Source: Candidatus Curtissbacteria bacterium (GTDB taxonomy: Bacteria > Patescibacteriota > Microgenomatia > Curtissbacterales > GWA2-41-24). Taken from it: a DNA stretch of 64,000 bases. Position 1 is the first letter of the stretch. The number at the start of each line of letters is the position of its first letter. Position numbers and translations under genes: made by a program. Under the pieces are notes generated by a model, which saw nothing but the letters and a program-made list of their open reading frames with translations, was not told where the DNA came from and ran no database searches. The DNA lies in the NCBI GenBank assembly GCA_024654445.1, contig JANLHP010000026.1, positions 16,733 to 80,732 of the forward strand. The letters are read 5' to 3'. Of this stretch, positions 1,713-33,576 are shown in pieces.

Positions 1713-4700
1713 ATGATTAGCATTGTCGTACCTACGTACAACGAAAAATCGAATATAAAAAAGTTGCTTTCCAGAATCGAGAAGGCCATTCGAAGCCACC
1801 CTGAAGACGTAGATAAATACGAAATTGTAGTAATCGACGATAACTCAAAAGACGGCACTTGGGAAATCTTGCAAAGAGAAAAAAGCTCCAAAATTAAAGT
1901 ATTTAGAAAAGAAGGTAAACAGGGCAAAGCATATTCCCTAGTTGAAGGGTTCAAAAAGAGCTCCGGCAATATCTTGGTAATGATCGACGCGGACCTTCAA
2001 TATCCTCCAGAAGCCATACCCCAAATGTTAAAACTTTTAGATCATTCGGATATCGTAGTCGCTAATCGCGAAACGTACGAACACTCTAGGGTAAGAAAAA
2101 CACTGTCAAGAATTTATAAATACACCTTCGGGAAAATCCTATTTGGCCTAAGTTGCGATGTTCAATCTGGTCTGAAGGCTTTTAAGCGAGAAGTTTATCA
2201 CGCCACTACCCCCAACCCTAAATCTCCATGGTCGTTCGACCTTGAATTCTTGCACAAATCAAAAAACGCCGGCTTCACCATTAAAGGTTATGACATTGTC
2301 TTCGACAACCGAAAAACAGACGATTCAAAAATAGGCGTTCTAAGGGTTGGGACGGAGCTTGCGATCAATGCTCTAGTTTTGAGAACTAAAAACACACACC
2401 CTCTTACCATTCCTCCTAAACATGCGAACACAATGCATGGGGCAGGAGTAGGTTTTAAGTCACGAAAGTATGTGACCCATAGCACCTTGCCTCACTATAA
2501 TTCCGCGCTTCAAGGTTTTGTCCTTTGGCAAAAGCTGTTCATCCTAACCGCTTTTGTCGCTCTTGTTCTAGGCCTTTATCTGTCTTTGCACTTAACGGCC
2601 CTTATCATCATCGGCACACTCAGCGCGATTTACTTCTTAGACGTTCTGTTCAGCCTATTTTTGATAGTAAAGAGTTTACACTTTCCTCCGGAATTAACCA
2701 CAACGTCACAGGAAATAAACTCGTTAAAAAACAAAGATCTTCCAATTTACTCAATCCTTTGTCCTCTTTACAAAGAGGCGAATATCCTCCCTCAATTTTT
2801 GGACGCGATAGCAAATATCGACTGGCCAAAAGAAAAATTAGACGTTTTACTTCTTTTGGAAGAAGACGACCAAGAAACAGTTGAAGCGGTTAAAAAAATG
2901 GATCTGCCAAGTTACATACGTACTGTGGTAGTTCCAGACTCTCAACCTAAAACAAAACCCAAAGCCTGCAACTATGGATTGTCACTAGCAAAAGGAGAAT
3001 ACCTCGTAATTTACGACGCGGAGGACAGACCGGAGCCTTTTCAGCTTAAAAAGGCTTTTATCTCCTTCAAGAAAAACCCAAAAAACATAATTTGCCTGCA
3101 AGCAAAATTAAATTACTACAACCCTCACCAAAATCTTTTAACGAGATTGTTTACAGCCGAATACTCATTGTGGTTCGACGTAATTTTGCCAGGATTGCAA
3201 TCGATCAAAACGACAATTCCACTGGGAGGAACGAGTAATCACTTTAAGACGCCTCTTTTAAAAGAGCTTCACGGATGGGATCCGTTCAATGTAACAGAAG
3301 ACGCAGATCTTGGCGCGAGACTTTTTAAACACGGCTACAAAACCGCGATTATTGATTCGGTAACCCTAGAAGAAGCAAATAGCAGACCTAAAAATTGGTT
3401 GCGACAACGTTCACGTTGGATTAAAGGCTATTTCCAAACATACCTGGTACATATGCGAAACCCAATCGCATTTGTAAAAGAACACAAGTTCCACGCTTTG
3501 ATTTTCCAGTTAATTATTGGCGCACGCATATCGTTTATGCTGATTAACCCTTTCCTCTGGGCGCTGACGATCCTTTACTTCGTTATGAGAGCGCGAGTAG
3601 GGGCTGCCATAGAAGCTCTTTATCCTGCGCCGATTTTCTACATAGCAGTTATTTCTCTCGTTTTTGGAAACTTCATGTACATCTATAACTACATGATAGG
3701 CAGTGCTAAAAGAGGGCACTACGCCATAATAAAATACGTATTTTTGATTCCTGTCTACTGGTTAATGGCATCGGTTGCTTCATTCATCGCCCTTTATCAA
3801 CTTATCGTCAAACCTCACTACTGGGAAAAAACCGTTCACGGCTTCCATCTTGAAAAAGAAAACGATGAAAAATTAAAGCAACAAAAACCAGTAACTGAAC
3901 AAATACAAGCAGAAAAAAAAGAAATATCCAAACGTTTAAAATTCCGGGAACTTATTAAATCTGGAACTTTCTCTGGTGGCCTATTAGTTTCAGGAGCAAT
4001 AGTCGGCAATGTCTTGAATTTTGCATACAACGCGTATCTGGCTAGAACTGTTTCTACCGAAGACTTCGGACTTATAAGTCTTATAGGCAGCTTTCTATTT
4101 TTAACATCAATTCCTCTTAACGCGCTCGCTAGAACTGTATGTCACAAGAGTGCTTTTTACTTAGGCAAACACCAGATTGCCCTTAAAGGTTTCTGGGCCC
4201 ATACCAGAAAAAGAGCCATACTTGTTTCTCTCATCGTTACCACTTTATGGATTGCCCTAACACCTCTTCTTGCGAAGTTTTTTCATTCACCGTCCTATCT
4301 TCCTTTTATTCTATTTGCTCCAGTTTGGATTATAGGTGCGGCATCCGCAGTCGACGGAGGGTTTCTAAGCGGAAATTTGAAGTTTAAAGTTAACTCCTTA
4401 ATACTAGTTACAGACCCCCTCGTTAAACTAATATTAACCTTCGCTTTAATTACCTTAGGGTACCCTCACTTAGTTTATGCCGCAATACCTTTGGCTGTGT
4501 TTGCCTACTTTTTAATAGGATGGTTTTTTGCAAGTTCGATAAAAGAGGAAAGGCCAAACATAATCAGCCATGAGGCAACCCTAAAATTCCCAAGAGGATT
4601 CTTTGTGACATCAATTTTAATGGGTTTCACAACGATTGCCTTTTTGACTTTCGATATCATTCTCGCCAAACATTTTTTGGCTCCCGTGCTTGCCGGACAG

Positions 4701-6359
4701 TACGCGCTTATGGCGCTTTTTGGCAAAATGATTTATTTCGTAGGGAATCTTTTTAATCAGTTTATAAACCCCCTTGTTTCAAGAGAAGAAGGTGCAAGCA
4801 GAGACAGTAAAAAGGTATTTTATAAACTTTTTCTTGGATCGACCCTTGCAGGATTAGCAGCCTACATAGGTGTTGGAGTCTTAGGATTTATTACGGCGCC
4901 ACTTTTACTAGGAGAAAAAGCGCACGCAATAACTCATCTTCTGCCAGCTTATGGCATTGGAATGCTTGCTTTCTCTATTTCAACAAGTATCGTCACTTTC
5001 TATCAAATAAGAAAAAACTACATATTCGCTTACACCAGCATACTTTTGGCCTTTATCCAAATTGCCGGAATATATCTATTCCACGATTCGCTGGAACAGA
5101 TGGTTTCGGTGATGGCATTTATTGGCGGGCTCAACCTTGGAGCAATGCTGCTTTTACACTTTGCATATAAGCCATTTGCAGCAATTGTAAACAATCTTAA
5201 AAATCTCAAGAACACCCTTTCTCTCCAGAGAGAAGAATCCGAATCGGATGAGGGCAAACGCATTCTCATATTCAATTGGAGAGACACAAAACATGTTTGG
5301 GCCGGTGGAGCCGAAGTTTACGTACACGAATTATCAAAAAAAATGATCGAAAAAGGCTATCACGTCACCGTATTTTGCAGTAATGACCGCAAGTCGACTG
5401 CCAACGAATTTGTTGATGGAGTTGAAATCATTAGGCGAGGAGGCCACTATACTCTGTACATCTGGGCCTTTTTCTATTACATCACTAAACTTCGTGGAAA
5501 ATACGATCTTATCATCGACTCAGAAAACGGTATCCCATTCTTCACCCCTCTCTACGTAAGAAAGCCTCTAATCGGTCTCATTCACCATGTTCATCTAAAA
5601 GAAGTTTTCGACAGACATCTTCCATGGCCCTTGGCCAAACTGGCTCACTTTTTAGAATCAAAGGTTATGCCCATTGTTTACAGAAACACACAGATAGTTA
5701 CAGTCTCCAATTCTTCTAAAGAAGAGATAGAAAAACTTGGTTTAGGCAAAAAAATATCAATTGTAGTGATACATCCGGGCGTTGATCTTACCAAATTTAG
5801 AACGATGCAAAAAACCAAAGATCCTTCCATTGTTTACCTCGGAAGACTAAAGCCATACAAGTCTGTGGATAGGTTAATTACTGCTTTCTCCAAAATTTTA
5901 AAAGAGATACCCAATGCGACGCTCACGATTGCTGGCGACGGTGAAAGCAGGAAAGAACTTGAAATCCTGGCCAAGAGTCTTCGAATAGAAAAAGTCGTTA
6001 AATTTGTCGGCAAAGTTTCAGAACAAGCAAAAGTAGAACTTCTTGGAAAAGCTTGGATAGCTGCTCAACCCTCAAAAAGCGAAGGGTGGGGAATCACGGT
6101 AATCGAAGCAAATGCATGCGGAACACCTGTTATCGCATCCGATATTCCTGGGCTTCGAGACTCCGTTAAAAATCCCCACACCGGTTTATTGGTCACCTGG
6201 GACAATCAAGAAAAATGGGCGGAGGCTATGACTAAAGTTATTAAAGACGAACGCCTTAGAAAGGACTTATCAGAGCAATCGCTCGAATGGTCTAAAAACT
6301 TTAACTGGGAGAAAAATGCCGAACAATTAATAAAAGTTGCAAAGTTAAAAAATGAATAA
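1713..6359 (+). CDS. 1548-aa multidomain glycan synthase: Dpm1/GtrB-like GT2, TM linker, processive-type GT2 (DxD, TED, QxxRW), TM bundle, MOP/Wzx-like flippase domain, GT4
   Basis: aa1-230 VVPTYNE...IDDNSKDGT...IDADLQYPPE (polyprenol-P-sugar synthase signature). aa~340-600 YDAEDRPEP, VTEDADLG, QRSRWIKG (QxxRW). aa~740-1180 multi-TM region with Wzx/PST-like N-term (GNVLNFAYNAYLARTVSTEDFG...). aa~1190-1548 GT4 (EGWGITVIEANACGTPVIASDIPGLRDSV). Single uninterrupted ORF. Confidence 0.8.
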   Translation: MISIVVPTYNEKSNIKKLLSRIEKAIRSHPEDVDKYEIVVIDDNSKDGTWEILQREKSSKIKVFRKEGKQGKAYSLVEGFKKSSGNILVMIDADLQYPPEAIPQMLKLLDHSDIVVANRETYEHSRVRKTLSRIYKYTFGKILFGLSCDVQSGLKAFKREVYHATTPNPKSPWSFDLEFLHKSKNAGFTIKGYDIVFDNRKTDDSKIGVLRVGTELAINALVLRTKNTHPLTIPPKHANTMHGAGVGFKSRKYVTHSTLPHYNSALQGFVLWQKLFILTAFVALVLGLYLSLHLTALIIIGTLSAIYFLDVLFSLFLIVKSLHFPPELTTTSQEINSLKNKDLPIYSILCPLYKEANILPQFLDAIANIDWPKEKLDVLLLLEEDDQETVEAVKKMDLPSYIRTVVVPDSQPKTKPKACNYGLSLAKGEYLVIYDAEDRPEPFQLKKAFISFKKNPKNIICLQAKLNYYNPHQNLLTRLFTAEYSLWFDVILPGLQSIKTTIPLGGTSNHFKTPLLKELHGWDPFNVTEDADLGARLFKHGYKTAIIDSVTLEEANSRPKNWLRQRSRWIKGYFQTYLVHMRNPIAFVKEHKFHALIFQLIIGARISFMLINPFLWALTILYFVMRARVGAAIEALYPAPIFYIAVISLVFGNFMYIYNYMIGSAKRGHYAIIKYVFLIPVYWLMASVASFIALYQLIVKPHYWEKTVHGFHLEKENDEKLKQQKPVTEQIQAEKKEISKRLKFRELIKSGTFSGGLLVSGAIVGNVLNFAYNAYLARTVSTEDFGLISLIGSFLFLTSIPLNALARTVCHKSAFYLGKHQIALKGFWAHTRKRAILVSLIVTTLWIALTPLLAKFFHSPSYLPFILFAPVWIIGAASAVDGGFLSGNLKFKVNSLILVTDPLVKLILTFALITLGYPHLVYAAIPLAVFAYFLIGWFFASSIKEERPNIISHEATLKFPRGFFVTSILMGFTTIAFLTFDIILAKHFLAPVLAGQYALMALFGKMIYFVGNLFNQFINPLVSREEGASRDSKKVFYKLFLGSTLAGLAAYIGVGVLGFITAPLLLGEKAHAITHLLPAYGIGMLAFSISTSIVTFYQIRKNYIFAYTSILLAFIQIAGIYLFHDSLEQMVSVMAFIGGLNLGAMLLLHFAYKPFAAIVNNLKNLKNTLSLQREESESDEGKRILIFNWRDTKHVWAGGAEVYVHELSKKMIEKGYHVTVFCSNDRKSTANEFVDGVEIIRRGGHYTLYIWAFFYYITKLRGKYDLIIDSENGIPFFTPLYVRKPLIGLIHHVHLKEVFDRHLPWPLAKLAHFLESKVMPIVYRNTQIVTVSNSSKEEIEKLGLGKKISIVVIHPGVDLTKFRTMQKTKDPSIVYLGRLKPYKSVDRLITAFSKILKEIPNATLTIAGDGESRKELEILAKSLRIEKVVKFVGKVSEQAKVELLGKAWIAAQPSKSEGWGITVIEANACGTPVIASDIPGLRDSVKNPHTGLLVTWDNQEKWAEAMTKVIKDERLRKDLSEQSLEWSKNFNWEKNAEQLIKVAKLKNE

Positions 6360-7962
6360 AACAAATTTGAATATTGTTATTTTTGATTTAGACGATATTA
6401 AAAACCCCCTTCTTGGAGGAGGTCAAGCATGGGCTACTTTTGAAGTCGGAAGACGGTTAGCACAAAACGGTCACAAAGTTACTGTAATCTCTTCAAAATA
6501 CCCAAATTACAAAGACAGAACTCAAGAAGGCATTGACTATAAACATATAGGCATCAATACCAAATTTATAAAGTTAAATAACCTTTTATACCTTTTTGCT
6601 GCACCCCTTTATGCTATGAAGACCAAGGCGGACATAATCGTCGAGTGTTTTACTGCACCAGTATCAACACTTTTTACACCTCTTTTTACCAGAACCCCTG
6701 TTGTCGCTTTGCCCAGTATGTTCAACGCCCATGAATTTACCAAAAAATACCACTTACCTTTTCATCTGGTAGAGAGACTAGGAGCCAGATTCTACAAGTA
6801 TCTCTTGCCATATTCAGAAATTGACAGCTCTAAAATGAAAAAACTTAATCCAGGCATCAACTTTAAAATTGTCCCCCAGGGAGTTGCTAAAGAATACTTT
6901 GCGATCAAACAAAGAAAACCGGAACACATCCTTTTCTTAAGTAGATTAGATATTGAGCAAAAAGGTGTCGACCTTTTGCTGATGGCCTACGCTAAAGTTA
7001 GTTCAAAAATAAAATACCCACTTGTTATAGCTGGCCACGGCCCTGACGAGAAAAAAATTAGAGCCTTAATTAAAAAACTTGGCTTACAAAATAAAGTAAA
7101 AATGGTAGGCGCAGCTTACGGCAAAAAGAAATTCGATTTAATGGCCAAGGCACTCTTCGTAGCTTTCCCATCAAGACATGATGAAATGTGTCTCTGGTCC
7201 CTCGAGGCTCTAGCCGGAGGGTTGCCCCTCGTTGGTTTTAATCTACCGGAATCTAAATGGATGACTAAAGATATATCCCTGAAATCTAAAAGATTCAATG
7301 TGGACGAATACGCGTCCACATTACTCGAAGCGACTGATCCTGGCGTAATTGATCAGATGAGGACAAACGCAAGAACTTTTGCAAGAAAATTTAGCTGGGA
7401 AAAAGTTACAGCAGAATATGAATCGTTTTTTTATCAAATTTTAGAAAACGAGGGAACAGTAAAAGTACCAACACTTATCTCATACGAAAGACATATTCCG
7501 AAGATTTCGGATGAGGGCTTTCTTAGTTTTGCAGAAAGTAAAAAACATATACCTTTTAACATCAAACGCTTCTATTACATCACAGATGTCCAAAGGGGAA
7601 AAATAAGAGGAATGCACGCGCACAGAAAAAACCGTCAATTCGCGTTCTGTATTCAAGGAAAGGTAAAAATGACTCTCGACGACGGGTCAAGAAGAGAAGA
7701 AGTTATTTTGAACAAATCGAACCAGGGGCTTTATCTGGACAAAATGGTCTGGCACGAGATGACGGAATTTGAAAAAGGAACAACACTTTTAGTTATTGCA
7801 TCAGAATATTTTGAAAAAAAAGATTACATCAGAAACTATCAAGAGTTTAAACAGCTGGTTGAAAAGAAACATTTCAACCTCGGCATGGATGTTAGAGAAT
7901 TTGCGTCTTACCTTCTAAAATTACCGCTTGCTGCAAATCCAATCCCTTGGAGGATCAGATAA
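6352..7962 (+). CDS. GT4 glycosyltransferase fused to C-terminal FdtA/WxcM-like cupin domain (dTDP-4-keto-6-deoxyhexose 3,4-ketoisomerase-like)
   Basis: GT4 N-term and C-term motifs (LLGGGQAWATFEVGRRLAQNGHKV; FVAFPSRHDEMCLWSLEALAGGLPLVG). C-terminal ~150 aa: FNIKRFYYITDVQRGKIRGMHAHRKNRQFAFCIQGKVKMTLDDG...LYLDKMVWHEMTEF...LLVIASEYFEKKDYIRNYQEF, matching the FdtA/WxcM pattern. Overlaps upstream gene by 8 nt. Confidence 0.7.
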   Translation: MNKTNLNIVIFDLDDIKNPLLGGGQAWATFEVGRRLAQNGHKVTVISSKYPNYKDRTQEGIDYKHIGINTKFIKLNNLLYLFAAPLYAMKTKADIIVECFTAPVSTLFTPLFTRTPVVALPSMFNAHEFTKKYHLPFHLVERLGARFYKYLLPYSEIDSSKMKKLNPGINFKIVPQGVAKEYFAIKQRKPEHILFLSRLDIEQKGVDLLLMAYAKVSSKIKYPLVIAGHGPDEKKIRALIKKLGLQNKVKMVGAAYGKKKFDLMAKALFVAFPSRHDEMCLWSLEALAGGLPLVGFNLPESKWMTKDISLKSKRFNVDEYASTLLEATDPGVIDQMRTNARTFARKFSWEKVTAEYESFFYQILENEGTVKVPTLISYERHIPKISDEGFLSFAESKKHIPFNIKRFYYITDVQRGKIRGMHAHRKNRQFAFCIQGKVKMTLDDGSRREEVILNKSNQGLYLDKMVWHEMTEFEKGTTLLVIASEYFEKKDYIRNYQEFKQLVEKKHFNLGMDVREFASYLLKLPLAANPIPWRIR

Positions 7963-9985: not shown

Positions 9986-10881
9986 AACAATTAAAGAATA
10001 TTTCCATAGGTATATCAGCTTATAACGAAGGCAAGAATATTAAAAAATTGCTCGATGAGATCTTAAATCAAGAAAAGAATAGGTGGCGTCTTAGCGAGAT
10101 TCTTATCTATTGTGACGGATGTTCTGACAATACCATAAATCAGGCGCAAACCGTAAAAAACAGCCTGATCAAAATTATAGACGGTAAAAAAAGAATGGGT
10201 AAAACTTACAGATTAAAACAAATGTTCGAACAATTTTCAGGCGAAATTTTAATCATGTTCGATGGAGACATAGAACTTGGCGACAAAAACGTTGTTACGA
10301 ATTTAATTAAGCCATTTCGAAACAAAAACGTAATGCTTGTCGGCGGAAACTCGAAACCGTTTACACCCAGAACATTTTTCGAAAGATCTGTTTACTCAAC
10401 CTTTTCCGTCTTTTACGACTCAAGGCTAAAGATAAACGGCGGCAATAACATATTTGGTTGCACCGGCTCTGTCTTAGCAACTCGCGGCAATTTCGCAAAA
10501 TCATTAAACCTTCCAGATTTAATTAATGAAGACGCCTACATTTATCTAAAATGTCTCTCCAGAGGATTCCAATTTAAGTACGTCGACAAAGCAATTGTCT
10601 ATTATAAATTGCCGACAAATTTAAAAGATTATCTCAGACAACTTTTCAGGTCAGACCCCAGAGCCGTCACAGAAGAACTAGAAACCTATTTTGGGCAGCT
10701 TGTAGAAAGTGAATTTAATCGTCCTCCCAAATTCTATATAAGGGCAGTCGCCAAAGCACTTTTGAAAAATCCAACAGGAGCAAGCTTCATAGCAATAGTA
10801 AACGTCCTTTGCAAACCGTTTATTAAAAAAATATCGAAAAATTATAAACTGACATGGTTTACGGCAATCTCAACCCATTAA
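9982..10881 (+). CDS. GT2 glycosyltransferase (tandem paralog 2)
   Basis: ISIGISAYNEGKNIKKLLDEILNQ, FDGDI. ATG at 9982 forms an ATGA overlap with the upstream stop. The ORF-track start at 9934 lies inside the upstream gene. Confidence 0.75.
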   Translation: MKQLKNISIGISAYNEGKNIKKLLDEILNQEKNRWRLSEILIYCDGCSDNTINQAQTVKNSLIKIIDGKKRMGKTYRLKQMFEQFSGEILIMFDGDIELGDKNVVTNLIKPFRNKNVMLVGGNSKPFTPRTFFERSVYSTFSVFYDSRLKINGGNNIFGCTGSVLATRGNFAKSLNLPDLINEDAYIYLKCLSRGFQFKYVDKAIVYYKLPTNLKDYLRQLFRSDPRAVTEELETYFGQLVESEFNRPPKFYIRAVAKALLKNPTGASFIAIVNVLCKPFIKKISKNYKLTWFTAISTH

Positions 10882-10883
10882 AA

Positions 10884-12713
10884 ATGAAAATCCAAAATCT
10901 TTCGACTCAAAATATGATAAAAGGCCAAATTGGCAGCCTACTTAACAGGTGGCTCTTCCGCGGCAGCAAAAATGTTAAAAGAGTAACGATAAAAGTAGAG
11001 GGCGGAAGAAAAGTATTTATTAAACAACACACATTTAAATTCAAAGATATGGATTACTACTACTTGGTAAACGAGGCAAATGTAATTAAAACTTTAAACA
11101 AAGCAAAACATACTATAAAAGACAGAGTACATTTTCCAAAGTTTGTGGACTTTGTGGAAGAAGAAAACAAGGTCACGCTTAAAACGGAATACGAGGGAGG
11201 CAGAAAGCTAAGCGAGCTTACCTCCAAGCAAAGATTAGAAATACTGGAAGAATGCCTTCATTCAATCTGGACGACTTCTGCAAAGTTAAGAGACAAAAAA
11301 CTAAGTTATGTTGCTAAAAGAACAAATAACTCGTTTTTTGCCTTCCTTCCTTATTATATTGTGAGAGCTTTTTCAAAAGATTTAAAAAACTACTCGACTT
11401 ACTTTGGGTTAATATTCAAGTTTTACAAATACTATTTAGCCAGCTACTTTATTAACAATATCCCAACTCTAACACATAGAGACCTTGATCCTGATAACAT
11501 AAAAATTTCAAGAAACGGGGAAATATCAATTTACGATTGGGAGAATGCTGTAATGAGCGATAAACTTTTCGACCTTGCGTCGATTTGTGAAATTTACTCA
11601 AATGAAATTAAAAACGATCATCTTTCAAGGATGCTCCGAAACACACTCGAGACTAAATCTGAGATTGACAGACTTTTGGCTCTTTCCATTTTTAGCTCGA
11701 CCCAAAAACTGGCACTTTACCCTAAAAGGTCCAAGTCTTATAAAAACGCAAAGATTAATTTGGCGAATCTAGAAACTATTAAAAACAATTTAACGAGAGA
11801 CAAAAGAACGTTATTTGAAATCGTTAATTCTCTAACCCTTAACATTCTAAGCTTTACGTACCAAAAGATATCGCCCGAAAAAATCAAAAGCAGCAAAAAA
11901 ACCGTTTTATGCTATCACTCGATAAGTAATTCGTCTTGGAGATATTCAATGAGGAAAACAGATTTTGCAAGACAAATAGAATTTCTTAGAAAGAACTATA
12001 ATTTGGTGTCTCTCCCAACTCTGCTTGATAAAAGAACAAAAAGGGGTATCGCGATAACTTTCGATGACGGATACGCTGACGTTTATGAAAATGCCCTTCC
12101 GGTTCTCAAGGCTTATAAAGTTCCAGCTACAATTTTCGTCCTTGGTGATAGAGAGCACCCAAATAGAAAGGAACTTGATAATAACGAAAAACTTATGACA
12201 ATCTCGCAAATAAAAGAACTTCACGCCAAGGGGTGGGAAGTAGGCTTTCATACAAAAACACACTCAAAACTAGGCGATTTATCAGACCACGAGCTAAAAG
12301 CAGAGATTATTGATGGGAAAAGAGAACTCGAAAATAAACTTGGCTTTACCATGAAATATTTCGCGTACCCATTCGGAATTTATTCAAGAGAAATCATAAA
12401 CGCTGTCAAATCAGCCAGGTTTGAAGCTGCCTTTACAGTCGATGGGTCAGAAATAAAACATGGAAACAATCTCCTTATAAGTAGGGTGCCGACAGAGGGT
12501 GATCTTAGTGTCAACCAATTTGCAGCACTCATCTCGCCCATCGGGCTTATAATTAACCAGATTTTCATGTCAACTCTTAAGACAAAAGCCAAAACAACCA
12601 AGAAAATTTCGTGTATAATTTCCAGCGATCGCTGGAAATTACATCAGGCGAGCGAAGCGAGAGCTGATATAATAACTGACTTGAAAACACAATTTAAAAA
12701 AGAAAAAAATTGA
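10884..12713 (+). CDS. fusion protein: N-terminal protein-kinase-like/aminoglycoside-phosphotransferase-fold domain + C-terminal NodB-type polysaccharide deacetylase (CE4)
   Basis: HRDLDPDNIKISRNGEISIYDWENA (HxDxxxxN...DxE kinase-like catalytic/Mg motifs). C-term GIAITFDDGYADVYENALPVLKAYKVPATIFVLGD...GWEVGFHTKTH (CE4 motifs). ATG at 10884 follows the upstream TAA by 2 nt. Confidence 0.6.
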   Translation: MKIQNLSTQNMIKGQIGSLLNRWLFRGSKNVKRVTIKVEGGRKVFIKQHTFKFKDMDYYYLVNEANVIKTLNKAKHTIKDRVHFPKFVDFVEEENKVTLKTEYEGGRKLSELTSKQRLEILEECLHSIWTTSAKLRDKKLSYVAKRTNNSFFAFLPYYIVRAFSKDLKNYSTYFGLIFKFYKYYLASYFINNIPTLTHRDLDPDNIKISRNGEISIYDWENAVMSDKLFDLASICEIYSNEIKNDHLSRMLRNTLETKSEIDRLLALSIFSSTQKLALYPKRSKSYKNAKINLANLETIKNNLTRDKRTLFEIVNSLTLNILSFTYQKISPEKIKSSKKTVLCYHSISNSSWRYSMRKTDFARQIEFLRKNYNLVSLPTLLDKRTKRGIAITFDDGYADVYENALPVLKAYKVPATIFVLGDREHPNRKELDNNEKLMTISQIKELHAKGWEVGFHTKTHSKLGDLSDHELKAEIIDGKRELENKLGFTMKYFAYPFGIYSREIINAVKSARFEAAFTVDGSEIKHGNNLLISRVPTEGDLSVNQFAALISPIGLIINQIFMSTLKTKAKTTKKISCIISSDRWKLHQASEARADIITDLKTQFKKEKN

Positions 12714-18597: not shown

Positions 18598-20133
18598 ATG
18601 ACTTTTAAGAAAATTGCTGTTTTTTTGCTGGTTTTTATAGCTTCGGCGTCACTGCTGATTCTTGGTATCAAGGGTAAAAGTGGAGACCCAGTTTTTTATC
18701 AATCAGAAGTCCAAACAGATAAAAATATTGGAGGCCCATTTGAATCTTCCAGCAGCAATTCTAGGTTTGCACTTGTAGAATCAATCGCAAAAGAAAGAAC
18801 CTTCTTCTTCAACGAGGAGAGAGCCTATTTTGCGGCGCCCGACCTAGTTTCTTATAACGGTACTTTCTTTTCTATTTTTACACCTGGAGTCTCTTTTCTT
18901 GGAGTACCTCTGTACCTGCTGGGAGCAAAAATCGGCTTTGCCCAGCTTGCGACATATTCTCTCAACATAATAGCAGGACTCTTGAATATATTTTTAGTCT
19001 ACAAGCTATCAAGAAAATTAGGCGCCGGGGCTTACAGCTCATTATTCTCAGGGACAGCATTTGTCTTTGCGACCCACGCCCTTGTATACGCCTTTACCTT
19101 AAGCCAGCACCACATTAGTACTGCCTTAATCTTATTTGCAATTCTAAACGCTATAGGTAAAAGAACTTTAGTAAAAGACATAACACTTGGTGCTGCTTTT
19201 GGATTAGGAATATTGATGGATATTCCTAATGTTTTCATGATGGCGCCAGTCATTCTTTATGCCTTCTCAAGAAGTATCAAGGTAGAAGACTTAGGAGAGA
19301 AAACAAAACTAGTAGTTAAACTAACAGTTTTGAGTTTCCTAATAGGCGTGATTCCTTTTCTGGCAACTTTTAGCTGGTATAACTACAAACTTACTGGCTC
19401 ATACCTCAAAATAGGCCAACTTATAGGCAGATCCGACTTTCCTGTAAAGGAAGAAAACAAAGCAACGCTAGTAATAGATCAAGAATCAAGCGAGCTGAGG
19501 TTATTAGAAGTGCCGTTTAACCCAAGAAGAATGTTGGAAGGCTTACCTCTTCTTATTGCAAGCAATGAAAGAGGAATACTCTTTTATAGCCCAATCACGG
19601 CATTTGGAATAGCCGGCCTTATCCTGGCAGTCAAATCCAAAAATCAACAACAGAAAACAGCAAGTACACTTGCAAGTTCCGTCATTTTTTCAAACCTTCT
19701 AATTTACGGTATGTTTGGTGATCCTTGGGGTGGTTGGTCTTTTGGCCCTAGGTATCTGGTTCCAACAGCAGCAATTCTTTGTGCTGGAATTGGCCCAATA
19801 ATTGAAAGATTTAAAAGAAAAATTATTTTTCTTATACTTTTGGCGCTCATTACTACCTACAGCATCTTTGTTAATACCCTCGGAGCGCTAACTTCTACAC
19901 AAGTACCCCCTAAGGTTGAAGCACAAGCCTTGCAAAATCCAATACCTCATACATATATTTACAATTGGCATCTCACTGAAAATAAATTCTCAGGCTCCTT
20001 AATCTACAATCTCTATTTTTCAAATATAATCCCAGCTCAAATTTATTTACTTCTGTTCTCCAGCCTATCCCTATTTTTTATGGTTTTAATATTTTCTGCA
20101 GCATATAAAGAAAAACCTATCATAGACAAATGA
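18598..20133 (+). CDS. polytopic membrane protein, GT-C-fold glycosyltransferase-like
   Basis: >10 predicted TM segments with an extracytoplasmic loop after TM1. Sits among polyprenol-P-sugar synthases. Confidence 0.45.
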   Translation: MTFKKIAVFLLVFIASASLLILGIKGKSGDPVFYQSEVQTDKNIGGPFESSSSNSRFALVESIAKERTFFFNEERAYFAAPDLVSYNGTFFSIFTPGVSFLGVPLYLLGAKIGFAQLATYSLNIIAGLLNIFLVYKLSRKLGAGAYSSLFSGTAFVFATHALVYAFTLSQHHISTALILFAILNAIGKRTLVKDITLGAAFGLGILMDIPNVFMMAPVILYAFSRSIKVEDLGEKTKLVVKLTVLSFLIGVIPFLATFSWYNYKLTGSYLKIGQLIGRSDFPVKEENKATLVIDQESSELRLLEVPFNPRRMLEGLPLLIASNERGILFYSPITAFGIAGLILAVKSKNQQQKTASTLASSVIFSNLLIYGMFGDPWGGWSFGPRYLVPTAAILCAGIGPIIERFKRKIIFLILLALITTYSIFVNTLGALTSTQVPPKVEAQALQNPIPHTYIYNWHLTENKFSGSLIYNLYFSNIIPAQIYLLLFSSLSLFFMVLIFSAAYKEKPIIDK

Positions 20134-21740
20134 CAATTAACATACAACTCAACAAACAAAGATTTCAAAAGGTTAAATCATTTTTAATCGAGAAAGACCT
20201 ACTTTTTATAACTATTTTTCTGACGGTAGCTGCCATCATTAGTTTTTTTATCTTTTACACAAGCGGCTTGGCGCTTGCGTACAACGACGCAAGGTCGCAT
20301 TTGGATATAGGCCGTAGAGTCGTAGAAGGCTTAAAACCTGGTATCGCTCAACTGGGATCAGTTTGGTTGCCCCTTCCTCACGTTCTAATGGTTCCGACTA
20401 TTTGGAACGATTTTATGTGGCACACCGGCCTTTCAGGCGCACTCATTTCGATGTTGTCTTTTGTGGGAACGGGAGTTCTTATTTATCTTATTTTAAAAAA
20501 TTTAAATGTAGGACCTTTAGGGAGAATTATCGCTGTTTTAATTTTTGCACTCAACATCAACATTTTGTATTTGCAATCAACTGCGATGACCGAACTCCTC
20601 TTGATATTCACAATGACAGCCGCAGTCTACGATCTCATGCAATGGGCAAAAACAGAAAGAATCGTATACGTAATAAGGTCATCTTTTTGGATAATGCTCT
20701 CAACTCTTGTTCGATATGACGGTTGGTTTCTCCTCATCTTCAGCGCTTTTATTATTGCAATTTTGCTTATAAAAAGTAGGGGATATAAAGTCACAGAAGG
20801 AACATTGATACTTTTTCTGACTCTGGGTGGATTCGGTATATTCCTTTGGGTTGTTTGGAATCTTCTTATTTTTGGAGATCCCTTATATTTCGCTTTCGGT
20901 CCTTTTTCCGCTAGAGCCCAGCAATCACAGCTTGAAGAAGCGGGAGTCCTTTCCACCAAAGGAAACATACTCTTCTCATTAAAAATGTACCTTTACGCGA
21001 TGGTTTACAACACCGGCGCATTCCAGGCAATTACAGGATTTGTAGGAGCCATCGTTTTATGGATGGATAAAAACACAAAGACGAGTGTACGAATAGCAAG
21101 CAGTGCATTAATGGCACCATTTCTTTTTAACGTCCTTGCTTTGTTCATGGGACATTCAGTCCTCTTCATTCAGGGTCTTTCGGGAAATACTTGGTTTAAC
21201 GTCAGGTATGGCGCAATGATGATTCCGACCGTGGCCGTGTTCACCGGGTATTTAATTTCCAAAGTCAAAGGTTTGAGGTATACTATCGCTGGACTATTTA
21301 TTGCTGTAACGTTTTTTGCTTTCGCAAATGTGGATGCGGTAACCATAGATGATGCGAGAGTTGGAAGCAGTCAGAAAAACGTCTCCGAAGTTAGTAGTTG
21401 GCTAAAACAAAATACCGAAGACGAGCCCGGCTTCATCTTGATATCGGCAGCTTCGCACGATGCCATAATTTTTTCCTCAGGTCTTCCAATGAAGAAATAT
21501 ATACATGAGGGAACCGGAGCTTACTGGGAAAGCGCAACCACATCTCCCGACAGGTGGGCAAAATGGATAGTGATGAGGACAAACGACACTAACGATTTGG
21601 CATTTAAATTGACACAAGAATCTGGACAGCTCGAAAAATATAACAAAGTCCAAAGTTTCCCGTTTGCAGACATTTACGAACTCAAGCGAGAGTATTGGCA
21701 ACAAGTAAATACAACACCAACATTAGGCAAACAAAAATGA
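20130..21740 (+). CDS. polytopic membrane protein, GT-C-like, with C-terminal soluble domain
   Basis: Multi-TM N-terminal ~400 aa followed by a hydrophilic ~130-aa tail. ATGA overlap with upstream gene. Confidence 0.4.
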   Translation: MTINIQLNKQRFQKVKSFLIEKDLLFITIFLTVAAIISFFIFYTSGLALAYNDARSHLDIGRRVVEGLKPGIAQLGSVWLPLPHVLMVPTIWNDFMWHTGLSGALISMLSFVGTGVLIYLILKNLNVGPLGRIIAVLIFALNINILYLQSTAMTELLLIFTMTAAVYDLMQWAKTERIVYVIRSSFWIMLSTLVRYDGWFLLIFSAFIIAILLIKSRGYKVTEGTLILFLTLGGFGIFLWVVWNLLIFGDPLYFAFGPFSARAQQSQLEEAGVLSTKGNILFSLKMYLYAMVYNTGAFQAITGFVGAIVLWMDKNTKTSVRIASSALMAPFLFNVLALFMGHSVLFIQGLSGNTWFNVRYGAMMIPTVAVFTGYLISKVKGLRYTIAGLFIAVTFFAFANVDAVTIDDARVGSSQKNVSEVSSWLKQNTEDEPGFILISAASHDAIIFSSGLPMKKYIHEGTGAYWESATTSPDRWAKWIVMRTNDTNDLAFKLTQESGQLEKYNKVQSFPFADIYELKREYWQQVNTTPTLGKQK

Positions 21741-22732
21741 AAAAAATAATTTTAATTATTGTAGTTTTGTTATCAGCAATGTTTATATTTAAACTTGCCG
21801 ACAAAAAAAGCAGTTTACCAACTTCTCCTCAAGTAAATAAAAGAATCTGGGAGATAAAATCAATCGATACGATGAAGTATTCCAGAGATCTTTCCGCAGA
21901 AAAGCTTAACGACCCGACATTCAACAACCACATCGATGCCCACATAAAAATTATCAAAGATACCGGAGCAACACATGTTGCAATTGCCACCCCCTACGAC
22001 GATAGATTCAACTCGGTTCTAAGACGTTGGGTATCGGTTGCAAGAAAATACGACCTCAACATCTGGTTCCGTGGCAATTTTTCCGGATGGGAGGGGTGGT
22101 TTGGTGAAGGCAGGAATAGTATTACGAGAGATCAACACTTGAGTATGACCAGGTCTTTTATCAAAAACAATGCGGATTTATTTAAAGATGGTGACGTGTT
22201 TAGTCCTTGCCCCGAATGTGAAAATGGCGGTCCCGGTGACCCCAGGTTCCAAACGAATGTTGCCGACTACAGAAAATTCTTAATCGCAGAACGAAACGCC
22301 TCCCTCGAGGAGTTCAAGAGTATTGATAAAGACATTACTGTTCTAGATTCTATGAATTTTGATGTCGCAAAACTCATAATGGACAAAGAAACAGCACAAG
22401 CGATGGGCAACATCATAGTTATAGATCATTATGTAGAATCGCCCGAAAGGTTAGCGCGGGATATAGACGAACTTCATAAAACTACCGGTGCCAAAGTTTT
22501 CTTGGGTGAATTTGGAGCGCCTATTCCAGATATACACGGAAACTTAACAGAAGAAGAGCAGGCACAATGGATCGAGCAGGCACTAAACCTAATTAGGAAT
22601 AAACAGCATTTAATAGGCTTAAATTACTGGGTGGCGATTGGGGGATCAACCGCGATATACAACGAAGAATTAGCGCCAAAACCTGCAGCAGAGATATTAA
22701 AGAAATTTTTTAAGCTAGATAGTCTTAACTAG
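21737..22732 (+). CDS. secreted/anchored protein, putative TIM-barrel glycoside hydrolase (weak)
   Basis: N-terminal signal/TM MKKIILIIVVLLSAMFIF. FLGEFGAPIP is reminiscent of a GH-A nucleophile region, but no clear acid/base motif. ATG at 21737 forms an ATGA overlap. Confidence 0.3.
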   Translation: MKKIILIIVVLLSAMFIFKLADKKSSLPTSPQVNKRIWEIKSIDTMKYSRDLSAEKLNDPTFNNHIDAHIKIIKDTGATHVAIATPYDDRFNSVLRRWVSVARKYDLNIWFRGNFSGWEGWFGEGRNSITRDQHLSMTRSFIKNNADLFKDGDVFSPCPECENGGPGDPRFQTNVADYRKFLIAERNASLEEFKSIDKDITVLDSMNFDVAKLIMDKETAQAMGNIIVIDHYVESPERLARDIDELHKTTGAKVFLGEFGAPIPDIHGNLTEEEQAQWIEQALNLIRNKQHLIGLNYWVAIGGSTAIYNEELAPKPAAEILKKFFKLDSLN

Positions 22733-23153: not shown

Positions 23154-23906
23154 ATGAAAGGTGTAATTTTAGCAGGCGGCTTAGGCACAAGGCTTTACCC
23201 ACTCACCCACGCAACGAACAAGCATTTGCTCCCCGTCTTTGACCAGCCGATGGTCTATTATCCAATTCAAACTCTCGTTAGTGCGGGAATAACAGATATT
23301 CTTGTTGTCATTGGTGGCCCTCACGCGGGAGATTTTATTAGAGTTCTACAAAACGGAAAGGATTTCGGGATTCGTCACCTGGAATACGCGTACCAAAATA
23401 GCGGCGATGGGGGAATAGCTGATGCCTTAAGGCTAGCGCAAGATTTTGCTGACAAAGATTCAATCACTGTCATACTTGGAGATAACTGCACAGATACGGA
23501 TATTTCAAAAGAAGTTCAAGATTTCAAAGAAGGCGCTGTAGTTTTCTTAAAAGAAGTTCCAGATCCAGAAAGGTTTGGTATCGCAGAGCTTTCAAAAGAC
23601 AAGTCCGCTGTTCTTGGAATTGAAGAAAAACCTAAAAATCCAAAAAGCAATCTTGCGGTAACCGGTCTTTACATCTATGATTCCGAAGTTTTTCATCATA
23701 TTAAAAACATTAAACCATCTACAAGGGGACAGCTGGAAATAACAGACGTCAACAACATATATATAAAGGAAGGTACTCTCCGTTGGGCAGAGTTAAAAGG
23801 ATTTTGGTCCGATGCGGGTACTTTTGACAGTCTTTACAAAACAAATGTATTCTGGGCCAGGAAAAGCCTAGGTAAAAAAGAGGAAAAGGAACTCACAGAT
23901 TTTTAG
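23154..23906 (+). CDS. rmlA: glucose-1-phosphate thymidylyltransferase-like sugar nucleotidyltransferase
   Basis: MKGVILAGGLGTRLYPLTHATNKHLLPV...; short (250 aa) form. Followed by rmlB, rmlC and rmlD. Confidence 0.7.
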   Translation: MKGVILAGGLGTRLYPLTHATNKHLLPVFDQPMVYYPIQTLVSAGITDILVVIGGPHAGDFIRVLQNGKDFGIRHLEYAYQNSGDGGIADALRLAQDFADKDSITVILGDNCTDTDISKEVQDFKEGAVVFLKEVPDPERFGIAELSKDKSAVLGIEEKPKNPKSNLAVTGLYIYDSEVFHHIKNIKPSTRGQLEITDVNNIYIKEGTLRWAELKGFWSDAGTFDSLYKTNVFWARKSLGKKEEKELTDF

Positions 23907-23983
23907 TCGAAATAAGTTAATTGGTTGACTAAGTTAATTGAGTTAACTTTACTAACCGATCAACTTAATTAACTTAATTAACT

Positions 23984-24994
23984 ATGAAAATCTTAGTCAC
24001 AGGCGGAGCCGGATTCATCGGTGCCAACTTCATACTTTACTGGCTTAAAAACCACCCTCAAGACGAAATAATAAACTACGATAAGCTTACTTATTCAGGC
24101 AATCTAGAAAACTTAGAAGACGTTGAAAACTCCCCTAATTACAAATTCGTAAAAGGCGATATTGGAGACGCATCCCAAATCAGAGAAGCCCTCGAAGGCG
24201 TAGATACTCTTGTTAATTTCGCGGCAGAAAGCCACGTTGATAGATCTATACTTGATCCTTCACCATTCATCATTACAAACGTAGTCGGCACACAGGTTCT
24301 TTTAGACGCCGCATTGGACGCTAAAATTAAAAGGTTCCATCATATTTCTACAGATGAAGTCTTTGGCGCTTTAGAACTTGATACAGAGGAAAAGTTTACG
24401 GAGGAAACACTCTATAATCCCCGCAGCCCTTACGCAGCTTCCAAGGCTGCATCCGACCACCTTGTAAGAGCTTACCACTACACGTACGACCTGCCAATAA
24501 CAATAACAAATTGTGCAAACAATTTTGGCCCCTACCATTATCCAGAAAAATTTATTCCTCTTGCCATCACAAATCTACTTGAAGGCAAAAAAGTGCCAGT
24601 CTATGGCGACGGTCTTTATGTCAGAGAGTGGCTTTATGTTGAAGACCACTGTAGCGGCATAGAAAAAGTTCTAGAAGACGGGAAAATTGGTGAAACTTAT
24701 TGTATTGGAATAGATATGGATATTCCCAATATAGAAGTAATAAAAAAGATCCTAAAAATCCTAAATATGAAAGACGACATGATAGAGTATGTAAAGGACA
24801 GGCCTGGACATGATAGAAGATACGCGATAGACGCAACCAAAATAAAAAAAGAACTTGGGTGGGAAGCTAAATATACTTTTGAAAAAGCCCTCGAACTTAC
24901 CGTAAAGTGGTTCCAGGAACACGAACAGTGGTGGAAAAAGCTCAAGGATAAAAATTTCGAAGATTATTACAACAAACAATATAAAACAAGATGA
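23984..24994 (+). CDS. rmlB: dTDP-glucose 4,6-dehydratase
   Basis: MKILVTGGAGFIGANF...YxxxK (YAASKAASD)...CANNFGPYHYPEKFIPL. Confidence 0.85.
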   Translation: MKILVTGGAGFIGANFILYWLKNHPQDEIINYDKLTYSGNLENLEDVENSPNYKFVKGDIGDASQIREALEGVDTLVNFAAESHVDRSILDPSPFIITNVVGTQVLLDAALDAKIKRFHHISTDEVFGALELDTEEKFTEETLYNPRSPYAASKAASDHLVRAYHYTYDLPITITNCANNFGPYHYPEKFIPLAITNLLEGKKVPVYGDGLYVREWLYVEDHCSGIEKVLEDGKIGETYCIGIDMDIPNIEVIKKILKILNMKDDMIEYVKDRPGHDRRYAIDATKIKKELGWEAKYTFEKALELTVKWFQEHEQWWKKLKDKNFEDYYNKQYKTR

Positions 24995-33554: not shown

Positions 33555-33576
33555 ATCACAAAGCGATAATGTTTTA

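Follow-up and report, generated by a model that had tools for sequence, protein, structure and literature searches.

Two questions are raised by the window analysed here (64,000 nucleotides of a Candidatus Curtissbacteria contig): does one long gene, deposited under the bare name "glycosyltransferase", truly encode a four-module chain, and what would such a chain build? The sequence-only reading had described a single uninterrupted ORF linking four modules in an architecture that it did not recognise. Both points held. The ORF begins with ATG and contains no internal stop, stop codons between the modules being what had been set beforehand as refuting a single chain, and sequence and predicted structure support each module. 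A full-text literature search found no description of the architecture or of its operon, in Patescibacteria or elsewhere, whereas the databases are rich in it.

An identical protein is present in NCBI (MCR4324992.1), and the search for homologous fusions that the sequence-only reading had suggested returned at least 120 full-length homologues of ~1,530-1,650 aa, 46-61% identical, from various samples and assemblers. All modules are kept in 117 full-length homologues, in which the only variable parts are the two inter-module linkers. There is practically no chance that an assembly or frameshift artefact joined separate genes: in certain relatives the split between genes does fall at the same linker, and otherwise nothing speaks in its favour, whereas the homologues are independent and come from different projects; the full fusion occurs in 18 of the 80 named genomes that we compared after a genome scan with the GT2a-GT2b alignment; GC is even along the whole gene (0.38-0.42); and module borders match variable linkers rather than frame breaks. 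These observations rule the artefact out: what the ORF encodes is an authentic multi-enzyme membrane protein, conserved in Patescibacteria, that has at least 16 membrane helices. The gene opens a glycan operon whose members all run in one direction, the start of the next gene (6352) overlapping its 3' end by 8 nt; a scan for promoters and terminators around it gave matches at chance level and no more. Table 1 lists the features.

Table 1. Modules of the fusion protein and its operon partners, with positions in the window
Feature	Positions	Strand	Residues	Description
Fusion gene	1713..6359	+		1,548 aa; NCBI MCR4324992.1, named "glycosyltransferase", Candidatus Curtissbacteria
Module 1, GT2a	1713..2417	+	1-235	GT-A domain, polyprenyl-phosphate sugar synthase type (DPMS/GtrB/ArnC-like)
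Two-helix TM hairpin	2523..2681	+	271-323	Between the GT2 domains; from AlphaFold2, hydropathy and split forms
Module 2 catalytic domain, GT2b	2718..3482	+	336-590	Cellulose-synthase-like GT2
Module 2 membrane region	3462..3842	+	584-710	Three long hydrophobic helices; invariant PHYWEKTxHG
Module 3, MOP	3963..5162	+	751-1150	12-helix MOP-superfamily domain, PST/Wzx type, N-in/C-in
Module 4, GT4	5265..6356	+	1185-1548	GT-B fold glycosyltransferase; invariant E1457-x7-E1465
Kinase/CE4 gene	10854..12713	+		Kinase-like (APH) domain and CE4 "polysaccharide deacetylase" domain (Pfam)
memA	18598..20133	+		Polytopic membrane protein; PMT_2 E = 1.5e-5, LA_3751/LA_3752 family 2.8e-14
memB	20130..21740	+		Polytopic, predicted GT-C-fold glycosyltransferase; PMT_2/PMT matches
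memC	21695..22732	+		One N-terminal TM helix and ~300-aa extracytoplasmic domain, glycosidase-like

The chain runs in the order GT2a, TM hairpin, GT2b with its membrane helices, variable linker, 12-TM MOP domain, variable linker and GT4. The four modules had been called a Dpm1/GtrB-type polyprenol-P-sugar synthase, a second GT2 with the DxD/TED/QRSRW synthase signature, a ~450-aa MOP/Wzx-like multi-TM domain and a C-terminal GT4; all four identifications are upheld by the evidence below, and we found neither a middle TM block unlike MOP nor a second GT2 lacking QxxRW or DxD, both of which had been set as refuting.

GT2a has a GT-A fold with a DxD metal/donor site and matches PF00535 over residues 3-162 (E = 1.9e-45); it carries the motifs MISIVVPTYNE (residues 1-11) and IDADLQYPPE (91-100), and D43, D92, D94 and D149-x-Q151-S152-G153 are invariant. 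Its best seven distinct PDB sequences are DPMS, ArnC (three) and GtrB (three), at 2.7e-26 to 9e-14 (phmmer); the closest characterised relatives are thus polyprenyl-phosphate sugar synthases and not sugar-acceptor GT2 enzymes. As its scores lie under the cut-offs of named equivalogs (72 bits vs. 529 for the ArnC model; 53 vs. 375 for the haloarchaeal dolichyl-phosphate hexose transferase model), GT2a is a relative rather than a named orthologue. Structural alignments span only ~230 residues; beyond the GT-A domain, AlphaFold2 places a helix at 209-225 and then the hairpin (helices 271-290 and 292-323), which in the model brings the chain back to the cytoplasm and which in split relatives is attached to either adjacent module.

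No part of the protein is more conserved than GT2b (73%). It is a GT-A domain joined to interface/TM helices (584-636, 639-666 and 670-699 in the AlphaFold2 model); PF13641 (3e-32) and PF13632 (1e-19) match residues 346-625, and the catalytic motifs DAED (435-438), TED (528-530) and RQRSRW (564-569) are invariant in the 117 homologues, T528 at 90% or more. The sequence matches BcsA with E = 5e-12; TIGR03937 (PgaC_IcaA) aligns over its full profile at 118 bits, below its cut-off of 422, and TIGR03030 (cellulose synthase) reaches 67 bits against a cut-off of 699. Structural alignments to BcsA, HAS and PcManGT (PDB 6YV7), the last being the match of best coverage, take in the membrane part, for which on its own no sequence-level match was found. 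The PHYWEKTxHG motif may correspond to the BcsA/HAS gating loop, although a sequence comparison gave this no support. No partner of the PilZ, BcsB, PgaD or IcaD type was seen. QxxRW is no proof of processivity. PcManGT, which makes no polymer, is a dolichyl-phosphate-dependent mannosyltransferase, and its tunnel is only partial. Given that this enzyme is the best-covered match, translocation by GT2b is putative.

The MOP block folds confidently (AlphaFold2, pLDDT 86.8, pTM 0.85), and its 50 best solved-structure matches in Foldseek are all MOP transporters (MurJ, MATE and WzxE), with alignments of 423-476 columns and query-normalised TM-scores of 0.52-0.74. At the sequence level, the window's block (~750-1150 alone) matches PF01943 (Polysacc_synt) over 257 of 274 profile positions with E = 2.4e-4 and 21.1 bits, under the cut-off of 28.2; among 24 family members, the block alone matches PF01943 in eight (best 4.9e-11) and PF13440 in one (1.1e-8), and a profile search of PDB sequences gave a single chance match to a GPCR. 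D981 and K1005 are conserved charges within the helices, and R778 is nearly so. Internal loops carry eight Lys and Arg inside vs. two outside, and both flanking linkers are Lys/Arg-rich; together with the AlphaFold2 hairpin, this positive-inside count and these linkers place all three glycosyltransferase domains on the cytoplasmic side. GT4 is a typical member of its family of retaining enzymes, with both Rossmann-like halves, the E-x7-E motif and matches to PF13439 (9e-19) and PF00534 (9e-46) over residues 1198-1523; its nearest solved relatives are MshA, BshA, PimA/B and PglH (1e-20 to 1e-13).

The operon led by the fusion contains extra small GT2 genes, the kinase/CE4 gene and, at its end, memA, memB and memC, the last three lying in same-strand synteny with the fusion family at 44, 57 and 28 of 80 loci, respectively. 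memA, with invariant E49 and D82, is probably a GT-C-fold glycosyltransferase, judging from its profile matches. memB appears GT-C-like from the minority of its members that match Pfam models (PMT_2 in 5 of 12, best 8.7e-7; PMT in 1 of 12); Y51-x-D53-A54-x-S56-H57 is invariant, and Y51-x-D53 sits after the first helix. memC weakly resembles a glycoside-hydrolase catalytic core (Glyco_hydro_cc in four of eight members, best 5.7e-5), and a sequence search yielded no solved relative. The Pfam matches behind the memA, memB and memC assignments are sub-threshold or come from a minority of members. The kinase/CE4 protein matches the NCBIfam models PgaB (1.5e-19), IcaB (8e-19) and HfsH (2.7e-5), all below cut-off; hydropathy reveals no N-terminal signal or TM helix, and the protein looks cytoplasmic.

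The family also supplies the modules in other arrangements. Adjacent gene pairs of the form [GT2a-TM-GT2b][MOP-GT4] exist (e.g. L043, with a 4-bp overlap); two loci (L010 and L036) encode GT2a-GT2b-GT4 followed by a separate MOP gene, and the L036 fusion contains just half a MOP domain. Some forms are without GT2a, which in three cases (L025, L057 and L067) is encoded separately and directly upstream, and ~20 loci lack a GT2a in the surrounding 10 kb; some variants are without any MOP. Worldwide, the MOP subfamily also occurs alone, and among its best 150 cluster representatives MOP+GT4 accounts for 34 and MOP+GT2 for 12. Since the modules are elsewhere adjacent separate genes or parts of other fusions, i.e. 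a Rosetta-stone family, they are expected to act together. It is quite improbable that they serve separate pathways and were fused merely for co-expression, stoichiometry or the economy of a reduced genome, or that the MOP domain is a non-transporting scaffold. The very variable fusion state, with fused, split and MOP-less forms intermixed on the GT2b similarity tree, would suit such an explanation, as would the half MOP domain and the sub-threshold Pfam score of the window's own block; the module set with its memA/memB/memC operon is, however, kept across many Patescibacteria lineages, the MOP charges are conserved in a confidently predicted fold, and the co-occurrence of the modules has a non-random structure.

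That structure comes from a survey in which contig ends truncate many loci and for which ORF calling and HMM thresholds were simple; its counts carry no phylogenetic correction. memA is present vs. absent in 41/8 loci with GT4 and in 2/16 without (Fisher p = 7e-8); CE4 occurs in 23 of 49 GT4 loci vs. 0 of 18 GT4-less loci; and the counts for MOP against GT4 are 35/3 against 14/15. MOP tracks GT4 and memA, and not GT2b and memB. Of the partners of module 2, memB is the most constant, present whatever other modules occur: minimal loci consist of [GT2a-TM-GT2b][memB] with no MOP of the fused-MOP family nearby, and in two genomes (L079 and L084) GT2b and memB form one ORF, both fusions being verified. 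GT2a correlates with neither GT-C enzyme. A Pga/Ica-like PNAG system, suggested at first by the top-scoring NCBIfam models of GT2b and CE4, was downgraded: unlike in those systems, the CE4 protein here has no signal or TM helix and goes with GT4 rather than GT2b.

The fusion protein apparently makes up the inner half of a so far undescribed pathway for a cell-surface glycan. Quite possibly, and as our preferred model, a single envelope glycoconjugate is built by two arms working together, whose inner-face and membrane components the fusion unites. In the first arm, the core, GT2a would charge polyprenyl phosphate with a sugar, GT2b would elongate a membrane-bound glycan, probably moving the product through its own membrane domain, and memB would handle that product at the outer face. 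The second arm would be an add-on: another lipid-linked glycan, built or modified by GT4, the small GT2s and the cytoplasmic CE4/kinase, would be flipped by the MOP domain and transferred outside by memA. The division into arms follows from the independence of memB from the other modules, the minimal loci, the GT2b-memB ORFs and the co-occurrence of GT4 with memA, CE4 and MOP. Given the absence of a GT2a-GT-C correlation and the ~20 loci without GT2a, that module is assigned to the first arm mainly by its frequent fusion to GT2b; and as MOP is absent from some variants, another factor may do the flipping there. The combination of synthase and flippase logic in one chain is proposed from gene co-occurrence and not from biochemistry.

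The several small soluble GT2 genes are no less compatible with the stepwise assembly of a lipid-linked oligosaccharide, and a single linear line of this kind, resembling archaeal Agl N-glycosylation, is a somewhat unlikely but serious alternative. GT2a would load polyprenyl phosphate with the first sugar; GT2b, here non-processive, PcManGT-like and without a polymer channel, would extend it on the cytoplasmic face together with GT4 and the small GT2s; MOP would flip the finished polyprenyl-phosphate oligosaccharide; and GT-C enzymes would transfer or polymerise it outside. Archaeal Agl pathways comprise the dolichyl-phosphate sugar synthases AglJ/AglD, soluble GT2s, the AglR flippase and the GT-C enzymes AglS/AglB. 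The parts list is the same (DPMS-like initiator acting on a polyprenyl monophosphate, several GT2s, MOP-type flippase and GT-C transferases), and there are weak NCBIfam matches to haloarchaeal enzymes, all far under curated cut-offs; by contrast, the present system is bacterial, its components are fused, and no oligosaccharyltransferase of the STT3/AglB type was identified. Against the linear line stand the minimal loci with no MOP of the fused-MOP family nearby and the GT2b-memB fusions, which suggest that the GT2b product reaches the outer face without this flippase, the company that MOP keeps with GT4 and memA, and the 395-residue structural alignment of GT2b with BcsA, membrane helices included.

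A lipoglycan or glycolipid pathway like that of mycobacterial PIM/LM/LAM is improbable. In the cytoplasm, GT4 would glycosylate a diacylglycerol or phospholipid anchor, MOP would flip it, and GT-C enzymes would extend it outside with the polyprenyl-phosphate sugar made by GT2a. PimA and PimB' are among the solved relatives of GT4 (~1e-15), MOP+GT4 is the commonest two-domain form among the best 150 cluster representatives of the MOP subfamily, GT4 co-occurs with memA, and LM/LAM synthesis uses a DPMS-like enzyme plus several GT-C enzymes, as with GT2a here. However, this pathway has no role for GT2b, which is better conserved than any other module and forms the system's core; a co-occurrence of GT2a with memA is absent; and MshA, BshA and PglH match GT4 as well as PimA and PimB' do, so that the acceptor type is not readable from the GT4 sequence.

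The two-arm arrangement can be set beside known systems. Like Wzx/PST flippases (WzxE, PDB 9G95) and MurJ, the fused MOP has a 12-helix fold, N-in/C-in topology and conserved helix charges, and part of its family matches Polysacc_synt; it differs in its strong divergence and in the covalent tether that links one of its ends, or both, to glycosyltransferases. Pairwise comparison detects no similarity to the canonical Wzx of the same cluster, so the substrate is probably different. Among the scanned ORFs (255 to 56603), no Pfam match of the Bac_transf or MraY/WecA type and no Wzy accompanying the fused MOP was found, four polytopic ORFs there being without assignment. A canonical Wzx/Wzy pathway is unsupported, the scan having revealed neither an initiating phosphoglycosyltransferase nor a Wzy to go with the fused MOP, and the fused MOP having no detectable similarity to the cluster's own Wzx.

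Closer parallels are the multi-component transmembrane glycosylation systems (GtrB/GtrA/GtrX, CsbB/GtcA/YfhO and GacI-GacJ/GacK/GacL), which likewise co-encode a GtrB/DPMS-type GT-A enzyme, a flippase that can be of MOP type and a GT-C enzyme, with the GT domains facing the cytoplasm and GT-C acting outside as in our model; the linkage that marks them, GT-A synthase, flippase and GT-C enzyme (PMT_2/PMT matches) in synteny, is found here. GacI/J-GacK-GacL is a precedent for a MOP-type flippase working with polyprenyl-monophosphate sugars and GT-C enzymes (PMC8035078), and a MATE-family flippase for undP-ribofuranose operates with an undP-ribofuranose synthase and GT136 (PMC11127046). The fusion differs in putting GT-A enzyme, flippase, synthase-like GT2 and GT4 in one polypeptide, and its operon has two dedicated GT-C enzymes, each with co-occurrence partners of its own; GT2a tracks neither enzyme. 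From BcsA, hyaluronan synthases, PgaC/IcaA and chitin synthases, GT2b is set apart by its constant GT-C partner, fused to it in two genomes, and by an N-terminus fused to the polyprenyl-phosphate sugar synthase-like GT2a. To our knowledge, no described synthase has a GT-C enzyme as a constant or fused partner, and no described polysaccharide pathway contains a constant pairing of a cellulose-synthase-like GT2 with GT-C, which here is one polypeptide in two genomes.

This pairing invites a bolder and rather unlikely proposal: the first arm may be an unrecognised export route in which GT2b elongates a GT2a-primed lipid and threads the glycan through its own helices to memB, which receives it outside. 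If so, GT2b would fill the "flippase slot" of the three-component systems and the MOP-GT4-memA arm would supply a second glycan, so that synthase-dependent and GT-C/flippase-dependent glycan assembly would be combined in one hybrid system, peculiar to the candidate phyla radiation and neighbouring groups.

The fusion also bears on a long-standing question, namely the way in which Wzx-type flippases recognise cargo and whether they associate physically with the glycosyltransferases producing that cargo: here a MOP flippase is covalently bound to three glycosyltransferases, and the family provides controls in the form of all intermediate fusion states. For cryo-EM and for reconstitution, one stable chain makes an attractive target.

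Patescibacteria live attached to host cells, and their envelopes are almost unstudied. Among species-representative genomes we count ~600 loci related to the fusion, nearly all in Patescibacteria; with the system so widespread in these host-attached bacteria, the glycan made is a plausible major surface structure. Some related contigs are titled "uncultured Gammaproteobacteria", "Bdellovibrionales" or "Pseudomonadales", and we suspect mislabelling.

The 1,548-aa fusion protein is encoded by a genuine gene and is no assembly artefact. The sequence-only reading had described a single uninterrupted ORF; this ORF (window 1713-6359, + strand) comprises 1,548 codons with an ATG start and zero internal stops, its base composition is even (GC 0.38-0.42 throughout), and an identical protein is held at NCBI (MCR4324992.1, 'glycosyltransferase [Candidatus Curtissbacteria bacterium]', 90.8-kb contig). 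Homologous fusions were sought among 5.8 billion protein clusters, which yielded at least 120 homologues of ~1,530-1,650 aa (46-61% identity, ~100% coverage) from NCBI, JGI, ENA and Logan assemblies, labelled Levy-, Gottesman- or Beckwithbacteria, Microgenomates or Patescibacteria; some JGI copies carry the name 'XagB'. We consider it extremely improbable that an assembly error joined separate genes.

The anatomy of the protein agrees with that reading: the quoted motifs VVPTYNE, DADLQYPPE, DAED, TED and QRSRW were each located, and a whole-protein Pfam scan found the three glycosyltransferase modules, namely the DPMS/GtrB/ArnC-like GT2a, the cellulose-synthase-like GT2b and the C-terminal GT4, an ordinary member of its family with MshA, BshA, PimA/B and PglH as closest solved relatives. 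The same scan gave no match over residues ~740-1180, the MOP block; scanned alone, this block matched Polysacc_synt (PF01943) at E = 2.4e-4, spanning almost the entire profile despite a score (21.1 bits) below the gathering threshold (28.2). Polysacc_synt was matched by 8 of 24 MOP members scanned singly (best 4.9e-11) and Polysacc_synt_3 by one (1.1e-8), and a search with the MOP sequence profile found no solved relatives. The proposed flippase-like nature was borne out by structure: a prediction from 24 family segments (pLDDT 86.8, pTM 0.85) had MOP-superfamily transporters (MurJ, MATE proteins, WzxE) as all of its top 50 PDB matches, with 423-476 aligned columns and TM-scores of 0.52-0.74.

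Features of the fusion protein (residues) and of the window (nucleotides). Counts of relatives (80 loci, strand and gene order as in the window) are minima because many contigs stop early.
Feature	Position	Evidence
GT2 domain (GT2a)	residues 3-162	Pfam E = 1.9e-45
Two-helix hairpin between GT2a and GT2b	residues 271-323	structure prediction
Second GT2 (GT2b)	residues 346-625	PF13641 3e-32; PF13632 1e-19
Three long hydrophobic helices after QRSRW-bearing interface helix	residues 584-636, 639-666, 670-699	structure prediction
GT4	residues 1198-1523	PF13439 9e-19; PF00534 9e-46
Sortase gene	255-824	
536-aa ORF, GT4 + FdtA/WxcM-type 3,4-ketoisomerase	6352-7962	
Kinase-like/CE4 gene	10854-12713	relatives in at least 25/80 loci
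memA	18598-20133	relatives in at least 44/80 loci
memB	20130-21740	relatives in at least 57/80 loci
memC	21695-22732	relatives in at least 28/80 loci
rmlABCD	23154-26408	
DPMS-like GT2 + GtrA domain	29759-30967	
PMT_2 protein	30978-32510	
Aspartate/ornithine carbamoyltransferase-like gene	32625-33554	
GT2 ORF	33466-34332	
Membrane ORFs	34319-35530, 35527-36135, 37833-39611, 42630-44054	no Pfam match (E ≤ 0.01)
Canonical Wzx	45730-47196	Polysacc_synt_3 E = 2.8e-54
638-aa ORF	47211-49127 (-)	no Pfam match (1e-4)
YfhO-type protein	53125-55620	
GT2 gene	55599-56603	

All modules are conserved in an alignment of 117 full-length homologues, with mean identities to the window protein of 44% (GT2a), 73% (GT2b), 44% (MOP) and 55% (GT4); the inter-module linkers (706-755 and 1161-1184) have 19-25% identity and variable length. 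Among catalytic residues, invariant or nearly so are D43, D92 and D94 of GT2a, DAED 435-438, TED 528-530 and RQRSRW 564-569 of GT2b, and E1457-x7-E1465 of GT4; in the MOP helices, D981 and K1005 are invariant and R778 nearly invariant. The MOP superfamily has an N-in/C-in topology, with which the charges of the 12-helix MOP domain (eight K+R in internal loops predicted inside vs. two outside) and the basic linkers on both sides fit. This topology puts GT4 in the cytoplasm and needs an even count of membrane crossings after GT2b; the chain is thus coherent in topology, and the three domains that use nucleotide sugars all lie on the cytoplasmic side.

The modules also occur in other combinations. 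A MOP-block profile run against 1.84 billion cluster representatives returned 6,499 relatives (931 at E ≤ 1e-30), the best 150 of which, classified with purpose-built module HMMs, comprised 75 MOP alone (some being fragments), 34 MOP+GT4 (~820 aa), 12 MOP plus one GT2 (~730 aa), ~11 GT2b+MOP+GT4 and nine full four-module proteins. A GT2a-GT2b alignment found at least 600 stretches (598 confirmed) in species-representative genomes. The best 80 are nearly all from Patescibacteria (Woese-, Levy-, Gottesman-, Ames-, Roizman-, Davies-, Dojka-, Doudna-, Morani- and Saccharibacteria, Parcubacteria and Minisyncoccia), and two are labelled Chloroflexota. Many of the related contigs are TPA_asm MAGs titled 'uncultured Gammaproteobacteria', 'Bdellovibrionales' or 'Pseudomonadales'; as their genes are 50-58% identical to the Patescibacteria protein and their operon is alike, these labels look unreliable.

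Among these 80 loci, 18 have the full fusion; others have neighbouring GT2a-TM-GT2b and MOP-GT4 genes, broken exactly in the variable linker (overlapping by 4 bp in L043), a GT2a-GT2b-GT4 protein followed by a separate MOP gene (two loci), forms without GT2a, or GT2a as its own gene immediately upstream (three loci). Because fused, split and MOP-less states interleave in a GT2b similarity clustering (UPGMA, a rough guide only), the comparison suggests repeated fusion and fission of modules. That independent activities were fused for economy, or that MOP has turned scaffold, we consider distinctly improbable.

In the window, as in two distant homologues (L001 and L003), the fusion gene heads a co-directional block in which small GT2 genes and then a membrane-protein trio follow. 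memB is predicted to be GT-C-like, with PMT_2 matched by 5 of 12 members (best 8.7e-7) and PMT by one; memA matches PMT_2 more weakly, and both match the Leptospira LA_3751/LA_3752 'putative glycosyltransferase' family. memC has a single N-terminal helix and a domain that in 4 of 8 members weakly resembles a glycoside-hydrolase core (best 5.7e-5). The kinase-like/CE4 gene encodes an APH/choline-kinase-like domain joined to a CE4 'polysaccharide deacetylase' domain, and is apparently cytoplasmic because an N-terminal signal peptide is absent. The partners themselves may be fused: memA and memB form one ORF in L023 (15597-18818), and memA of L037 (3350-6739) has a ~620-aa N-terminal extension matching the kinase/CE4 gene.

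Co-inheritance was tallied over 67 informative loci, ignoring kinship. memB was found irrespective of the other modules, whereas memA occurred in 41 of 49 loci that have GT4 and in 2 of 18 that lack it (Fisher p = 7e-8); L082, one of these two, overlaps the operon of L005 on one contig. The CE4 gene likewise occurred in 23 of 49 loci with GT4 vs. 0 of 18 without, and 35 of 38 MOP-containing loci have GT4; GT2a tracked neither GT-C enzyme, memA or memB. The closest named relatives of the CE4 domain are PgaB, IcaB and HfsH, each below cut-off; a Pga/Ica-type reading, prompted by the top-ranking names of GT2b and CE4, does not fit, because CE4 appears to be cytoplasmic and goes with GT4 rather than GT2b.

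GT-C enzymes work on the outer membrane face with polyprenyl-phosphate-linked donors; in the established 'multi-component transmembrane glycosylation' scheme, these donors are products of a GtrB/DPMS-type GT2 and reach the enzymes through a flippase. Following this scheme, we tentatively propose two cooperating arms whose cytoplasmic and membrane half is the fusion protein. In the first, GT2a and GT2b would pass their product to memB; in the second, GT4 would work with the small GT2s and the CE4/kinase, and the product would be flipped by MOP and then used by memA. The analysis shows the anatomy, conservation, topology and co-inheritance of the system, whereas we infer all substrates, the direction of hand-over and any translocation of the GT2b product. 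Polyprenyl-monophosphate sugars have been proposed as cargo of the Wzx-type flippase GacK (PMC8035078) and of a MATE-type flippase (PMC11127046). The + strand block of the window ends with a stand-alone canonical Wzx, to which the fused MOP has no detectable pairwise similarity; this argues for distinct cargo.

A single linear, archaeal Agl-like line for a lipid-linked oligosaccharide, with GT2b acting as does the membrane GT2 PcManGT, could account for the numerous small GT2 genes, for the finding that no canonical initiating transferase turned up in the ORF scan (255 to 56603), and for the three or four paralogous GT2a-TM-GT2b genes in tandem in a Saccharimonadales MAG (L036, 149-15576), one of which has only the C-terminal half of MOP ahead of GT4 and a separate full-length MOP gene next. 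We judge it unlikely, however, given eight minimal loci in which GT2a-TM-GT2b is followed by memB without MOP, and two Chloroflexota-labelled MAGs in which TM hairpin-GT2b-memB is one ORF (L079:10447-14322 and L084:9581-13288). A lipoglycan route of the PIM/LM kind, with MOP flipping a glycolipid made by GT4, leaves the core GT2b without explanation and is improbable.

Each of the four domains falls into a known superfamily, and databases already list the protein as 'glycosyltransferase'. Searches of full texts, with few subscription journals among them, turned up no account of the architecture, the GT2b/GT-C pairing or the operon; an earlier description may exist. The protein suggests a partnership of a synthase-like GT2 and a GT-C enzyme that was not described before, and it probably belongs to a system that makes a major envelope glycan in Patescibacteria. 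Its interest rests mainly on this role, this partnership and the natural covalent flippase-glycosyltransferase assembly, of which every intermediate fusion state is available.

A co-directional glycan supercluster (1713-47196, on to ~56600) fills almost the entire window, with over 15 genes for glycosyltransferases, six or more GT-C-type membrane proteins, rmlABCD, FdtA/DegT/acetyltransferase genes for 3-acetamido-3,6-dideoxyhexose, two UDP-glucose dehydrogenase-like genes and one GDP-mannose dehydratase. The 536-aa ORF has a start codon overlapping the fusion-gene end by 8 nt. Two classical GT-A/GT-C pairs are present: the DPMS-like GT2 with GtrA domain immediately before the PMT_2 protein, and the YfhO-type protein immediately before a GT2. 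The Pfam-less membrane ORFs could encode a Wzy-like polymerase, an initiating transferase that escaped recognition, or more GT-C enzymes. The product of the carbamoyltransferase-like gene, whose end overlaps the next GT2 ORF, might carbamoylate a sugar. The sortase gene just upstream of the fusion gene, with relatives ≤10 kb away in 10 of 80 related loci, is a hint of a Gram-positive-type wall to which surface proteins are anchored.
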